A DNA stretch of 64,000 bases, taken from positions 1,024,001 to 1,088,000 of the forward strand of contig OZ244052.1 in assembly GCA_965215125.1 (NCBI GenBank), read 5' to 3'. Each line of letters opens with the position of its first letter. The first letter of the stretch is position 1. This document shows, piece after piece, positions 30,649 to 44,657 of this stretch. A program made the position numbers and the translations under genes. Under the pieces are notes generated by a model. That model ran no database searches, was not told the origin of the DNA, and worked only from the letters and a program-made list of their open reading frames with translations. Source of the stretch: an uncultured candidatus Porisulfidus sp. (GTDB taxonomy: Bacteria; Pseudomonadota; Gammaproteobacteria; Poriferisulfidales; Oxydemutatoraceae).

Positions 30649-30686
30649 TGCAGACACGACGCGACTACCCCGTCAGGCTACGCCTG
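30649..30686 (-). repeat. Repeat family fragment at the left edge of the atp duplication
   Basis: Reverse complement caggcgtagcctgacggggtagtcgcgtcgtgtctgca matches 32819-32849 joined to 34874-34880. Confidence 0.75.
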
Positions 30687-30694
30687 TATGCGGG

Positions 30695-31114
30695 TTAGCG
30701 GCCGCGTTTGCGCAGGCGTTCTATCATACGAAGCTGGGCAGCCACTTCGGCAAGTTCGGTCATTGCTTTGGCAGTTTCTATATCGGTGAGTTGGCTTTGT
30801 AGCAGTTCTTCGGCACGTTGTTTGGCTTCCAGTGCTCTGGCTTCGTCCAGATCCTCGCCGCGCAAGGCGGTGTCGGTTAGGACGGTGACCATGTGCGGTT
30901 GTACTTCTATCACGCCGCCGGAGACATAGAAGTGGCGGTCGTCTTGACCTTCCATGCGCACCCGCACCTCGCCGGGGCGCAAGGTTGATAGAAAGGGTGC
31001 ATGCTGCGGATAGATGCCGACTTCGCCCATTTCGGCTTCGGCAAAAACCGCATTCACCTCGCCGTTGAAGATCTCCTCTTCGGCACTAACAATATAAGTA
31101 CGTATCGTGTTCAT
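30695..31114 (-). CDS. atpC: ATP synthase epsilon subunit, second copy
   Basis: GEVGIYPQHAP, YVSGGVIEVQP; protein identical to 40383-40802. Confidence 0.95.
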   Translation of the reverse strand: MNTIRTYIVSAEEEIFNGEVNAVFAEAEMGEVGIYPQHAPFLSTLRPGEVRVRMEGQDDRHFYVSGGVIEVQPHMVTVLTDTALRGEDLDEARALEAKQRAEELLQSQLTDIETAKAMTELAEVAAQLRMIERLRKRGR

Positions 31115-31135
31115 CTGTAGCGGCGTAGGGTTGGC

Positions 31136-32530
<1,395 letters not shown>

Positions 32531-32541
32531 CTATCTATAGG

Positions 32542-32743
32542 TTAAATTGCAGCAGCGCCTCCGACAATCTCGGAAAGCTCCTGTGTAATCGCTGCCTGAC
32601 GCGCTTTGTTATAAGCGAGTTGCAGCTCGTCAATCAGTGAACCGGCGTTCTCCGATGCGCTCTTCATCGCAACCATGCGCGCCGCCATCTCGCAGGCGAC
32701 ATTTTCCACGACCGCCTGATACACTTGTGATTCGATATAACGC
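32542..32743 (-). pseudogene. atpG: 3' fragment of atpG (duplicate)
   Basis: Matches 42230-42431 ([15 protein letters not shown]), cut by a repeat. Confidence 0.9.
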
Positions 32744-32849
32744 CGGCTGTTGAAAAATAGAATCGCAATGTAACCGAAATGTGTAGAGGCGGACCATTCC
32801 CCTCCTTTGGAGGGGTGGCAGGCGTAGCCTGACGGGGTGGTCGCATCGT
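32744..32849 (+). repeat. Repeat family member that hosts the MITE
   Basis: attcccctcctttggaggggtggcaggcgtagcctgacggggtggtcgcatcgt, resuming after 34873. Confidence 0.8.
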
Positions 32850-33015
32850 GGGGCTGTTGAAAAAGTATTGGCACTGCATAAATCCAACCGCGTGCGCCGT
32901 GAATTTATAATAACCACTGAGCCGTAGATAGTATGGATGACCAGCTTTGCTGAAAGTTGGTTAAACTTTCATTTTAGTTCCCCTCTTAAGAGGGGTTTAA
33001 TTCACCACTAAACAA

Positions 33016-34176
33016 ATGAGGTCACCCATGACTAGTATACTGTATGTTGGCATTGATGTTGATGATAAGAGTTTCACTGCCACAGCCATTTCTAAACACA
33101 ATAATCATCATTCCATTAAAACGCGTCCGGACTTTGCATCACTGCATAAGGCAATCACCAAAGTCGCTTTGCCGAATGAACGAATCAGGGTCTGTTATGA
33201 GGCGAGCTATTTAGGCTTTTCGTTAAAGCGACAATTTGATGCGGTGGGCATTCATTGTGATGTGATTGCGCCGTCGCTAATCCCGGTGCGTCCCTCGGAT
33301 CGTATCAAGACTGATCGTTTAGATAGCGTCAAGCTGACCGAATACTACCGGCAAGGTATGTTGAAAATCGTCCACGATATTGATACTGAGACCGAAAGTC
33401 ACCGACAACTCATTCGTGGACGTCAACAAGTGGTCAACACCTGCAAGATCTATAAACTGCAGATTTTGTCGTCGTGTCGTTATCGCGGGATTAGTTATCG
33501 TACCAGTATGCGGGCTAAGAGCTATTGGACGAAGCAACACATGGCATTCTTAAAGCGGTTGCTAGTCGACGAGAGTTTAGATAAGTATTTCCGCATTGAT
33601 TTAGAGAACAAGTTGTATCTATTGGAGACGCAACAAGGGGTTATCAGACGCTATGAGAACGATATACATCAGTTAGCGGTATCCGAGCCGTATCGTCGGG
33701 CGGTCGGCTATTTATGTTGTATCAGAGGCATTGCCGAGTTGATTGCCATGACGCTGATTGTTGAGATTGGCGACATCGGTCGGTTTGTCAAGGCGCGTCA
33801 TCTGGCCGGTTATGCCGGCTTGAGTATCAGTGAGTATAGTTCCGGTGGCAAGAGTCGCAAAGGGGGTATTACCGGGATGGGTAACAAATACATCCGCACG
33901 GTGTGCGTGGAAGCCTGCCAGTTGGCGGGTAGACGCTATAGCGTGAATAAGGCATTGCGTGCCCGACGCACCGACCAAGACCTAGTGGCTATAGAGATAG
34001 GCGACCGTTGCATGAAGCGTTTGTATAAGAAGTATCAGACGATGTATCATGCCAACAAACCATTCAACAAGATTAAGGTGGCGTGTGCCAGAGAGCTACT
34101 CGGTTTTGTGTGGGAAGCCTTGCGTGCTGCCCAGGCCGCTGAGAACGCATTGCACGCCGCACCGGTGGTTGAGTAA
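33016..34176 (+). CDS. IS110-family DEDD transposase/recombinase
   Basis: YVGIDV, CYEAS, KTDRLDS, YAGL..EYSSGG, ITGMGN, VACARELL; start probably the later ATG (MTSIL). Confidence 0.92.
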   Translation: MRSPMTSILYVGIDVDDKSFTATAISKHNNHHSIKTRPDFASLHKAITKVALPNERIRVCYEASYLGFSLKRQFDAVGIHCDVIAPSLIPVRPSDRIKTDRLDSVKLTEYYRQGMLKIVHDIDTETESHRQLIRGRQQVVNTCKIYKLQILSSCRYRGISYRTSMRAKSYWTKQHMAFLKRLLVDESLDKYFRIDLENKLYLLETQQGVIRRYENDIHQLAVSEPYRRAVGYLCCIRGIAELIAMTLIVEIGDIGRFVKARHLAGYAGLSISEYSSGGKSRKGGITGMGNKYIRTVCVEACQLAGRRYSVNKALRARRTDQDLVAIEIGDRCMKRLYKKYQTMYHANKPFNKIKVACARELLGFVWEALRAAQAAENALHAAPVVE

Positions 34177-34189
34177 GTTCGCTAAGCAA

Positions 34190-34470
34190 GAGGTTGCCAG
34201 ATAGAGTTTTGAGAGACCGAGGGAGTTGAAGCTAAAGTCAATGACAAGTTCCGAACTTAGATGCCGTCCTAGAGTATCTGCCCATAGAAAACTGCCAGGC
34301 GTGATGCGTGGCAGGGCAACTGACCGTAGATTAAGGGGCACAGTTCATCCAATTAACTTATCATGTGGTAATGCGAAAGCAAAGTACACGAATATGAGGT
34401 TGATAATACCGAACGACTCATTAGTTGAGTACTTTAGCGGCGCTGCGCTCGGTCTTTCTTCGGCACAGCA
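34190..34470 (+). ncRNA. Candidate bridge/seek RNA (boundaries approximate)
   Basis: Non-coding region after the transposase has TCTGCCC (34277) and CCGTAG (34324), matching the two target halves, around a CTGCCA/TGGCAG hairpin, plus ATATGAG (34392), matching the donor right end. Confidence 0.6.
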
Positions 34471-34687
34471 TGATGCCGTTAACAAGGAGATAAAGCAGGT
34501 GCACGAAAGTCGCCACGACAAGTGGCGCATACACATACCTGATGCATGCTTTAAGAGTGGTGGCGCATTGCTATCGCTCGCTCCTTGTTGGCATCATCTG
34601 TGCCGTCATTTAACCCTTGAGTTCTGGTGACTCTTGGGAATGTAGACTTCGGTAAAAATTTAATTTGACAAGCTGGTCATCCATATG

Positions 34688-34838
34688 AGGGGCAGACCTG
34701 TGTGTCTGCCCTTAAGTGCCGTTCTGCACAGCCGTAACCGCTTGCGCCGTATGGTTTTGGTTTCCATAAATCGGGTGAATGAATGTATAAATCGTGCCAA
34801 CCAGCGCGTTACGGGCGGACATGCAAGTCCGCCCCTAC
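34688..34838. repeat. Inverted GTAG-type REP pair (REPIN-like)
   Basis: (GT)AGGGGCAGACCTGTGTGTCTGCCC and GGGCGGACATGCAAGTCCGCCCCTAC. Confidence 0.8.
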
Positions 34839-34921
34839 CACTCTATGGAATACTTTTTCAACAGCCCCATCGTATCTGCACTATTTTATACATTCATCCA
34901 TTTGATCTATAGCACCCATAC

Positions 34922-40333: not shown

Positions 40334-40374
40334 CGTTCCCCCATTTTTAGAACCACCCCGTCAGGCTGCGCCTG
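40331..40374. repeat. Orphan IS3 end fused to a repeat fragment at the duplication junction
   Basis: TGACGTTCCCCCATTTTTA is 18/19 identical to the reverse complement of the IS3 right end; followed by accaccccgtcaggctgcgcctg. Confidence 0.7.
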
Positions 40375-40382
40375 TGTGTGGG

Positions 40383-40802
40383 TTAGCGGCCGCGTTTGCG
40401 CAGGCGTTCTATCATGCGAAGTTGGGCGGCAACTTCGGCAAGTTCGGTCATCGCTTTGGCAGTTTCTATATCGGTGAGTTGGCTTTGTAGCAGTTCTTCG
40501 GCACGTTGTTTGGCTTCCAGTGCTCTGGCTTCGTCCAGATCTTCGCCACGCAAGGCGGTATCGGTTAGCACGGTGACCATGTGCGGTTGTACTTCTATCA
40601 CGCCGCCGGAGACATAGAAGTGGCGGTCGTCTTGACCTTCCATGCGCACCCGCACTTCGCCGGGACGCAAGGTTGATAGAAAGGGTGCATGCTGCGGATA
40701 GATGCCGACTTCGCCCATTTCGGCTTCGGCAAAAACCGCATTCACCTCGCCGTTGAAGATCTCCTCTTCGGCACTAACAATATAAGTACGTATCGTGTTC
40801 AT
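40383..40802 (-). CDS. atpC: ATP synthase epsilon subunit
   Basis: Last gene of the intact atp operon. Confidence 0.97.
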   Translation of the reverse strand: MNTIRTYIVSAEEEIFNGEVNAVFAEAEMGEVGIYPQHAPFLSTLRPGEVRVRMEGQDDRHFYVSGGVIEVQPHMVTVLTDTALRGEDLDEARALEAKQRAEELLQSQLTDIETAKAMTELAEVAAQLRMIERLRKRGR

Positions 40803-40823
40803 CTGTAGCGGCGTAGGGTTGGC

Positions 40824-42218
<1,395 letters not shown>

Positions 42219-42229
42219 CTATCTATAGG

Positions 42230-43090
42230 TTAAATTGCAGCAGCACCTCCGACAATCTCGGAAAGCTCCTGTGTAATCGCTGCCTGACGCGCTTTGTTAT
42301 AAGCGAGTTGCAGCTCGTCAATCAGTGAACCGGCGTTCTCCGATGCGCTCTTCATCGCAACCATGCGCGCCGCCATCTCGCAGGCGACATTTTCCACGAC
42401 CGCCTGATAAACTTGTGATTCGATATAACGCTTGAGCACAAAATCAAGCACGCCGTGCGAATCCGGTTCATAAATATAATCCCAATAATGCTTCATGCTC
42501 TCGTCCTCTATCGGCGGCACCGGCAACAGCTGCAGGGCTTGCGGCTTTTGGGTCATTGTATTTATGAAACGGTTCTCTATTAAAAACACCCGGTCTATTT
42601 CCTCCTGCTCGTATGCGTCGAATATCACCTTCATCGTGCCTAGTAATTGAGTGAGTTGCGGAGAGTCGCCCAGATGAGAGGTTTTGGAAATAATCTTTGT
42701 ATAGCGTCTGAAAAAGCCTGCGCCTTTACTACCGATCGTCGTCACTTTAATATCAACACCTTTATCTTTCCATTCGCGCATCGATGCGAGTGCAGCCTTG
42801 AACAGATTGACATTGAGACCGCCGCAGAGTCCGCGGTCAGTAGAGACGATGATATAGCCGACATTTTTCACCTCTTCCCGCTTTGTCAAAAAGGGGTGCT
42901 GGTATTCAAAATGCGCTTGTGCAATATGCCCGAGTAAGGCGCGCATGCGATCGGCATAAGGACGGCTGGCAGCCATTTTATCTTGGGCACGACGCATTTT
43001 ACTGGCGGCGACCATTTCCATCGCCTTAGTAATTTTTTGCGTGTTTTTAACGCTCGTTATTTTGGTTCTTATTTCCTTGCCGACTGCCAT
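42230..43090 (-). CDS. atpG: ATP synthase gamma subunit
   Basis: [33 protein letters not shown]. Confidence 0.98.
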
Positions 43091-43118
43091 ATTCTTTGCC
43101 TAAACAATTGCTCGGTTG

Positions 43119-44657
43119 TTACCACGAACCGTTTGCTTTGAAGTCTTCAACCGCTTTTTTCAATACGCCTTCTATGTCTTCGTTGAAATCGCCTTGGTTC
43201 ATCTGCGTCATCAAGTCGGCATGCTCGGCGCGCATATGCGAGTGTATCGCCGCTTCGAATGCACGGGTTTTCTTAACCTCTATATCGTCCAGATAACCGC
43301 GATCGGCAACGAATAGCGAGACTGCCATCTCGGCAACCGACAACGGCGAGTATTGATTTTGCTTCATCAATTCCATCACCCGTTCGCCGCGCTCGAGCTG
43401 TTTTCTGGTCTGTTCGTCCAAGTCCGATGCAAACTGTGAGAAGGCAGCGAGTTCTCGGTATTGTGCAAGCGACAGACGCACACCGCCGCCTAGCTTTTTG
43501 ATAATCTTGGTTTGCGCAGAACCCCCGACCCTAGACACCGATAGCCCGGCGTTCATTGCCGGTCTAAAGCCGGCATTGAACAAATCGGTCTCAAGAAAGA
43601 TTTGCCCGTCGGTGATCGAAATCACATTCGTCGGCACAAATGCCGAGACATCGCCGGCTTGCGTTTCAATAATCGGTAGTGCGGTCAAAGAACCGGTCTT
43701 GCCCTTAACCGCACCTTGGGTTTTCTGTTCGACATAATCGGGGTTCACCCGTGCGGCGCGCTCCAGCAGGCGCGAGTGCAGATAAAAGACATCGCCCGGA
43801 TAGGCTTCTCGCCCCGGCGGGCGGCGTAGCAACAGGGAGATCTGACGATACGCCCACGCCTGTTTGGTGAGGTCGTCGTAAATAATCAGTGCATCTTCGC
43901 CGCGGTCGCGATAATACTCGCCCATCGCACAGCCCGAAAAAGGTGCCAAGAATTGCATCGCTGCCGGGTCCGAAGCACTGGCGGCGACGACAATCGTATG
44001 TTCCATCGCACCGTGTTCCTCGAGCTTGCGCACCACGGCGGCAATCGACGATTGCTTCTGCCCGACGGCAACATAGATACACTTCAGATCACCGCCCTTT
44101 TGGTTGATGATGGTGTCGACCGCAACCGCAGTTTTGCCGACTTGGCGGTCGCCGATAATCAATTCGCGTTGCCCGCGTCCGATCGGCACCATAGAGTCGA
44201 TGGCCTTCAGACCGGTTTGTACCGGTTGCGAAACCGACTGTCGGGTGATGACACCCGGAGCCACTTGTTCAATGGGTGCAGTCTGTTCGGTTGCAATCTC
44301 GCCCTTGCCGTCTATGGGCTGACCGAGTGCATTAACGACGCGTCCTTCCATAGCAGGACCCACCGGCACTTCCAAAATGCGACCGGTGCATGTGCATATC
44401 TGTCCTTCACTAACACCCAAATAGTCGCCCAGCACAACTGCGCCGACCGAGTCGCGCTCTAGGTTCAACGCCATTCCGAAGATCCCGCCTTCAAACTGGA
44501 TCATCTCTCCGTACATTACGTCTTGCAATCCGTGGATGCGCACGATGCCGTCGGTTACACTAACGACTACGCCTTCGTTGCGAATCTCCGGCGACGTGCT
44601 GAATTCTTCTATTTTCTCTTTGATTAAACTACTAATCTCTGTTGGGTTTAGTTGCAT
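43119..44657 (-). CDS. atpA: ATP synthase alpha subunit
   Basis: [32 protein letters not shown]. Confidence 0.98.

Follow-up and report, generated by a model that had tools for sequence, protein, structure and literature searches.

The stretch of DNA analysed here (the window) is a 64,000-nucleotide segment of the genome of an uncultured candidatus Porisulfidus sp., and near its middle lies an insertion sequence (IS) of 1762 bp that is inserted at the foot of a repetitive extragenic palindromic (REP) sequence of its host (Table 1). The element holds one transposase gene, with 513 nt of non-coding DNA 3′ of the stop codon versus 88–100 nt 5′ of the start. On its sequence it is very probably an intact member of the IS110 family with an IS1111-type layout, whose own bridge RNA (or seekRNA) carries guides matching the REP in which it sits. 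The original prediction, made from the letters of this DNA without database searches, had proposed such an element; all of its coordinates match the letters, and the motifs TCTGCCC, CCGTAG, ATATGAG and TTGACA, as well as the CTGCCA/TGGCAG hairpin, lie where it had placed them.

Several lines of evidence place the protein in the IS110 family. The transposase matches the Pfam domains PF01548 (DEDD_Tnp_IS110) and PF02371 (Transposase_20), and it scores 176.8 bits against the NCBIfam model NF033542, 'IS110 family RNA-guided transposase', for which the cut-off is 140. Similarity of the single protein to IS621 and ISCro4 is weak (E 5.5e-5); a profile of 25 relatives matches IS621 (E 1.6e-15) and ISCro4 (E 7e-17), and in the alignment with ISCro4 the catalytic residues D, E, D, D and S fall at corresponding positions. 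The residues that are invariant in the family are all present. By these comparisons the element is a member of the IS110 family and its product a predicted DEDD/serine recombinase. Its assignment to the IS1111 type, also part of the original prediction, is supported by the layout: 16-bp subterminal inverted repeats (7–17 bp expected), a long 3′ non-coding region that contains the putative RNA, and an order of target guides in which the top-strand match comes first, 5′ of the bottom-strand one, as described for IS1111 seekRNAs by Siddiquee et al. (PMC11187229).

Table 1. Features of the element and of its target site, in window coordinates
Feature	Position	Strand	Remarks
Left target half CCGT with one copy of the AG core (left flank CCGTAG)	32922..32927	+	
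Whole insertion sequence	32928..34689	+	AG core counted at the right end; four further copies in the same genome share these end bases
Left-end extension ATAGT	32928..32932	+	predicted right donor half, read by the right donor guide
Left subterminal inverted repeat TATGGATGACCAGCTT	32932..32947	+	16 nt, 100% complementary to the right repeat
Transposase/recombinase open reading frame	33016..34176	+	likely start ATG 33028 after GAGG at 33018-21, giving 382 aa, as in database protein P0001
Predicted target-binding module	34253..34346	+	basal stem GAACU/AGUUC, UGCC/GGCA, CCU/AGG; internal loop with both target guides; apical hairpin; from constrained folds and homologous modules in relatives
Right target guide TCTGCCC, then AU opposite the core	34277..34285 (TCTGCCC 34277-34283)	+	reverse complement of the right target half GGGCAGA
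Apical hairpin CTGCCA...TGGCAG	34292..34314	+	between the target guides
Left target guide CCGTAG	34324..34329	+	identical to the top strand of left target half plus core
Predicted donor-binding module	34350..34402	+	basal stem CAAU/GUUG; internal loop with both donor guides; apical hairpin with UGC-GAAA-GCA tip
Right donor guide CTTATC	34357..34362	+	complementary to core G and left-end bases ATA(G/A)
Left donor guide ATATGAG	34392..34398	+	identical to right end plus core
CUCAU box	34417..34421	+	complementary to the left donor guide, ~20 nt after it
Lineage-specific structured module	34425..34650	+	~225 nt, between bridge RNA and right end
TTGACA, outward-facing −35 hexamer of the promoter predicted at the circle junction	34665..34670	+	just inside the right inverted repeat
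Right subterminal inverted repeat AAGCTGGTCATCCATA	34670..34685	+	16 nt, 100% complementary to the left repeat
REP hairpin GGGCAGACC-TGTG-TGTCTGCCC	34690..34711	+	perfect; whole = GGGCAGACCTGTGTGTCTGCCC; first 7 bases are the right target half

The element separates CCGT-AG from the 5′ arm of the REP hairpin (GGGCAGACC), and its inverted repeats are set in from the ends, by 4 bases on the left and, with the core counted, by 4 bases on the right. The target CCGT-AG-GGGCAGA that the original prediction had reconstructed from these flanks is a real site, as 23 uninterrupted copies of GTAGGGGCAGA and 5 of the form CCGTAGGGGCAGA are present in the same genome. The pattern GGGCAGA-N6-10-TCTGCCC occurs 17 times there, or 44 times with R/Y allowed (GGGC[AG]GA-N6-10-TC[CT]GCCC), and GTAG precedes many of these REP copies. 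The target is thus a REP, an imperfect short palindrome with many intergenic copies. Between occupied and empty sites only the dinucleotide AG is ambiguous, and therefore the element inserts without duplicating its target, using an AG core that it shares with the foot of the REP. Public contigs contain joints that skip exactly 1762 bases with a 2-base overlap; these probably come from other REPs, because their sides are shorter than 30 nt and lie within repeats. The cluster of REPs that hosts the element is itself bracketed by a perfect 21-nt inverted repeat, TGGGGCTGTTGAAAAAGTATT (32849-32869 and 34849-34869). The 17-nt core of this repeat, present in 44 genomic copies, delimits mosaic repeat clusters of 150–370 bp, and the REP is therefore part of a larger unit resembling a bacterial interspersed mosaic element (BIME) or a miniature inverted-repeat transposable element (MITE).

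Four candidate guides can be read in the region 3′ of the transposase gene, two for the halves of the target and two for the ends of the element. The second donor guide, which the original prediction had been unable to make out, is the CTTATC listed in Table 1. Co-occurrence of the target guides greatly exceeds chance: when the 484-nt non-coding region was shuffled 20,000 times with dinucleotides preserved, TCTGCCC appeared in 330 shuffles and CCGTAG in 1,540, and both together, in the right order and 15–60 nt apart, in none.

A sister element offers a natural example of RNA-guided retargeting. Another genome of the same genus, G035, contains six copies of a relative that is 74% identical to the window element in amino acid (aa) sequence and 76% in nucleotide sequence and that has the same ends, and all six lie in (C/G)TTTAG|GGCGGAT. 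In the aligned non-coding region TCTGCCC of the window element is replaced by TCCGCCC and CCGTAG by CTTTAG, exactly what the target CTTTAG|GGCGGA requires. Uninterrupted sites of both kinds are available in both genomes, with 76 copies of GTAGGGGCAGA, not used by the relative, and 45 of TTTAGGGCGGA in G035, and 8 of TTTAGGGCGGA beside the 23 of GTAGGGGCAGA in the host of the window element. Site choice therefore follows the guides and not availability, and sister elements in sister genomes, differing in both target guides, occupy different REP variants. The covariation of guides with targets that the guide reading of the original prediction called for is thus found in this pair, and the more distant relatives described below are concordant with it. 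A third member of the genus, belonging to another species (G036), holds a deletion derivative (L011; G036:C1 locus 1410-2265) made up of element positions 1–330 and 1221–1762 at 92–95% identity. It retains both ends and the entire RNA region without the transposase, and its right target guide reads TTCGCCC.

Two further observations concern the G035 genome. At G035:C2:265432-272294, GTAGGGGCAGA recurs every ~266–267 nt over ~7 kb, a periodicity that suggests a tandem array of REP-containing units. A 134-codon open reading frame at 34226-34630 of the window was considered as a possible gene and rejected, because the G035 relative has a 1-nt and a 7-nt indel inside the frame.

A scan of genome contigs with the single protein found no relative; an alignment-based scan was needed, and it recovered 80 related loci. 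The geometry flank-AG-5 nt-ATGGATGA...TCATCCAT-ATG-AG-flank is common to 37 of these, and the family analysis covers those 37, the other 43 having failed the motif filter or being too short. They represent 23 distinct elements with ~40–45% aa identity, mostly from metagenome-assembled genomes (MAGs) labelled Bdellovibrionota and Gammaproteobacteria. Within this set the guides vary with the DNA they are predicted to read. For the right target guide, in the 19 elements with both flanks, an exact match of at least 7 nt to the reverse complement of core plus right flank was found in 12/19 self comparisons versus 15/342 non-self comparisons, and the summed score was reached by 0/20,000 permutations. 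The 12 matches fall at one homologous place in the RNA, at positions 59–69 in 10 relatives and at 33 and 40 in two elements with larger hairpins. The left target guide, scored over 5 alignment-fixed positions in 20 elements, agreed with its own flank at 3.3/5 and with other flanks at 1.29/5 (0/20,000 permutations). Identity of the left donor guide to the right end is complete (7/7) in 21 of 22 elements, both ACGAG-end variants included. The right donor guide, taken as the 5 nt before the donor hairpin in 22 elements, scored 3.73/5 for self versus 3.24/5 for non-self (6/20,000 permutations), the clearest case being the change from CUU, where left ends begin AAG, to UAU, where they begin ATA, in the lineage of the window element. 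The order of the target guides, with the top-strand match first, is seen in relatives as well. A mismatch count over the whole region had low power, and self-ranks were often mid-field; its total still beat 20,000 permutations. These elements define, by sequence, a widespread uncharacterised subfamily in MAGs labelled Bdellovibrionota, Gammaproteobacteria and other groups, with common ends (ATGGATGACC repeats and AG core) and a readable four-guide RNA, which could enlarge the set of bridge recombinases available for engineering.

Structural comparison points to the same RNA. When nucleotides 34244-34425 are folded with the four guide stretches held unpaired, two modules form, each a stem, internal loop and hairpin holding two guides, and the constrained folds of most relatives have this two-module shape with basal stems that differ in sequence. 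A compensatory substitution in G035 (TGC/GCA to TGT/ACA) preserves the donor apical stem, and the alignment pair 123:145 is CG in 20 sequences and UA in 2. RNAalifold applied to a MAFFT alignment recovered only this stem and an AUGAG:CUCAU pairing; the target module was missed because it is not aligned in register. A hand-written basal stem was in register in only 1–12 of 20 rows and was hence left out of the covariance model. That model, built from 20 distant relatives only, matches the 64-kb window once, on the + strand at 34277-34428 with 26.7 bits (rough E 0.002), and has 6 matches in the 7 related loci searched, with none listed in the truncated copy L003. Comparison with Rfam gave no family at threshold and chance-level matches only. 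Together these results support a bridge (seek) RNA of ~170 nt, with two loops and four guides, encoded 3′ of the transposase gene at 34253-34421. The handshake-guide logic of IS621 was also looked for in the RNA region and is not convincingly recognisable there.

A mechanism consistent with this anatomy is that described in 2024 for related elements. A circular copy of the element, closed by joining its ends at AG, would be directed by the bridge RNA to the foot of a REP hairpin, where the DEDD/serine recombinase would swap strands at the AG shared by element and REP. Joining of the ends would also build a promoter, TTGACA-18-GATAGT, reading into the transposase gene and the RNA. When the ends are joined at one AG, TTGACA is followed after 18 nt by GATAGT, with TG just upstream, and the second hexamer is GATAAT in G035; a junction promoter that reads into the transposase gene and the RNA is described for ISEc11 and IS621 (PMC11187229; PMC13626964). 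A weak promoter-like site just upstream of the RNA (34209-34238) is not above chance. Transcription and processing of the RNA, its binding by the protein, circle formation and present-day activity are steps that we infer from the sequence. The left untranslated region of the element (32938-32995) contains, upstream of the ribosome-binding site, two hairpins, one at 32938-32963 and one, CCCCTCTTAAGAGGGG, at 32980-32995 followed by TTTAATT. These may attenuate read-through transcription from outside the element.

REP-targeting members of the family are already known (ISPa11, IS621, ISPpu9/10), and what the present element adds to the known mechanism is the natural retargeting pair, the large uncharacterised subfamily and two structural extras considered below. 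By published description, ISPa11, an IS1111-group element of Pseudomonas aeruginosa, resembles the window element in its fixed position in a REP, its subterminal inverted repeats, a seekRNA 3′ of the transposase gene and the same guide order (PMC11187229), whereas the host and REP sequence differ and the window transposase is the longer one. ISEc11 and ISXne4, also of the IS1111 group, are described in the same paper as a natural pair (72% aa identity) whose seekRNA guides differ in step with their targets, as in the pair of window element and G035 relative (74%). The junction promoter is a described feature of the former pair and a predicted one of the latter; the targets given for ISEc11 and ISXne4 are not REPs, unlike those of the pair reported here, which is known from sequence alone. 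IS621 and ISCro4, of the IS110 group, share with the window element a DEDD/Ser recombinase, a two-loop, four-guide bridge RNA and a dinucleotide core, and IS621 likewise targets a REP (PMC11208160, PMC11208158). They differ from it in encoding the RNA upstream of the gene, in the reversed order of the guides (PMC11187229, PMC11208160) and in being without long inverted repeats; the core is CT in IS621 versus AG here. ISPpu9 and ISPpu10 of Pseudomonas putida are, like the window element, REP-targeting members of the family that recombine at an AG common to element and target (PMC12288879). ISPpu9 also has an extra module after its transposase gene, in that case a small-RNA module; it belongs to the IS110 group and is without inverted repeats, and its ssr9 also occurs free-standing, which the extra module of the window element does not.

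Several observations weigh against the reading of an intact element guided by its own RNA. At 382–386 aa the transposase exceeds the 330–350 aa given for IS1111 transposases (PMC11187229), and its identity to plasmid-borne IS110-family genes does not go above about 35%; the named plasmid-borne relatives ISSfr2 and ISEc45 reach 30–32% aa identity. The unconstrained fold of the single sequence is no more stable than those of shuffles (z = −0.68). The original prediction had raised the concern that the matches might fall in paired stems, and in this fold the guides do pair with each other, their placement in loops coming from the fold in which they were held unpaired. The right donor guide of the window copy makes 3 Watson–Crick pairs and 1 G–U pair out of 5, versus 5/5 in G035, and the base opposite the core G is a mismatched A in the window, G in G035 and the complementary C in many distant relatives. 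Measured from a conserved 3′ UAG, the right target guide is shifted by one base compared with that of G035, where the target has one G fewer. A right-guide match of at least 7 nt is missing in 7 of the 19 elements, and among public runs listed as holding the element sequence there is no RNA run.

The copies in the host genome, a single contig of 2.22 Mb, also bear on this reading. There are five, with 96–97% identity. Of these, A (the window copy) and B are whole; another element cuts C short at element position 1336, and both D and E are interrupted near element position 990. Copies A and D have the flanks CCGTAG and GGGCAGACC, copy B has TTGTAG and GGGCAGATT (GGGCAGA type), copy C has CCGGTAG with the right end lost, and copy E has CCCTAG and GGCATAC. 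REPs of the GGGCAGA type thus host three of the four copies that keep a right end, as expected in the original prediction if other copies sit in the same REP. The expectation fails for copy E, which has identical guides and a right flank that does not match them, and copy B agrees in its left flank only at GTAG. Three of the five copies are truncated or interrupted and the copies diverge by 3–4%; therefore they do not demonstrate recent activity. It is possible, though on balance unlikely, that the element, though correctly built for RNA guidance, has lost its mobility and persists by drift as a resident fossil lineage, in which guides still match because element and REPs are both old. Consistent with this are the two whole copies out of five, with C truncated by a different element and D and E interrupted by another insertion, the fact that the copies are alike and not identical, and the failure to see a circle junction in public contigs; contigs, however, cannot reveal rare circles. 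Against decay stand the open 391-codon frames of the whole copies A and B, kept also in truncated C, the full set of family-invariant residues, the identity of the guides in all four copies that keep the 3′ region, and the retention of ends and RNA by the G036 deletion derivative in another species. An intact recombinase orthologue aimed at REPs, as originally predicted, therefore stands on sequence with regard to its integrity and its REP-matching guides, and its being programmable or active is a matter of interpretation.

The two structural extras lie between the left donor guide and the right end, ~80 nt apart in most relatives and ~290 nt apart in the window element. The first is the CUCAU box, whose pairs with the left donor guide are kept in 19–21 of 22 sequences, CUCGU going with ACGAG in both variants (L045 and L053). 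The box may serve to mask the guide, take part in a pseudoknot or read the second strand of the donor. The second is the 225-nt module, the predicted fold of which is markedly stable (z = −5.69; 0/200 shuffles as stable), with 73 predicted pairs kept across three lineages and two compensatory changes. No Rfam family matches it, and no reading frame in it is conserved. As an extension of the bridge RNA, the CUCAU box, covarying with left donor guide and right end, would keep the donor guide locked up to the arrival of protein or donor, or would read the second donor strand, and in the lineage of this genome the 225-nt domain might be a functional part of the RNA. We consider this proposal rather unlikely; if true, a CUCAU box acting in this way or a functional 225-nt domain would add to the known forms of bridge-RNA architecture and regulation. 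Alternatively the module could be a hitch-hiking passenger outside the bridge RNA, comparable to ssr9 in ISPpu9, which is described as holding such a module (PMC12288879). This is distinctly unlikely: the position between RNA and right end and the absence from the ~1.45-kb relatives would fit a passenger, but all 12 matches (in 4 of 19 family genomes, from one genus) lie inside copies of this element and never outside, and the module lacks a box resembling the left end. The reading of the module as an independent MITE was rejected because no copy exists outside the element.

That the guide matches are incidental, the transposase reading REP hairpin and inverted repeats directly and the 3′ region being a spacer or regulatory leader, is extremely unlikely: the matches are just 6–7 nt, the single-sequence fold is unremarkable and the long 16-bp repeats could be protein sites, but both guides shift with the target in the G035 relative, the position-specific correspondence extends over ~20 elements with unrelated targets and was reached in none of 20,000 permutations, and none of 20,000 shuffles held the ordered guide pair.

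Seen from the host genome, the RNA-guided element proposed here is unremarkable, being one among several that insert at REPs. The element that truncates copy C (C1:1428679) is a second one targeting REPs, with the end ATGCCTTATTAAAA(A/G)TCAAG placed inside REP hairpins (GGGC[AG]GACTGGCATG|ATGCC...), and it is found also at C1:297974, 989566 and 1998230. In copies D and E (C1:931980-933790 and C1:1115591-1118539), inserts of 1.8 and 2.9 kb with the ends CCCTAATT...AATTAGGG occupy one and the same site in the transposase gene, where TGCCA flanks them on both sides; the two inserts are oppositely oriented. A third repeat, (A)ATAAAGCCGCCGATTGAGCC(G/A)GT(G/A)GGTCAA, directly follows GTAGGGGCAG(A/G) in at least 7 places (for example C1:659632, 1337612, 1407484 and 2144707), as if inserted in the same REP arm.

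The surroundings of the element include a segmental duplication of 2,080 bp with 97.6% identity (30664-32743 and 40352-42431), which takes in atpC, atpD and ~67 codons at the 3′ end of atpG. The complete atpA-atpG-atpD-atpC run is at 40383-44657 on the minus strand, and the second atpD with its atpG 3′ fragment ends at 32743, the exact start of the repeat cluster that holds the IS.

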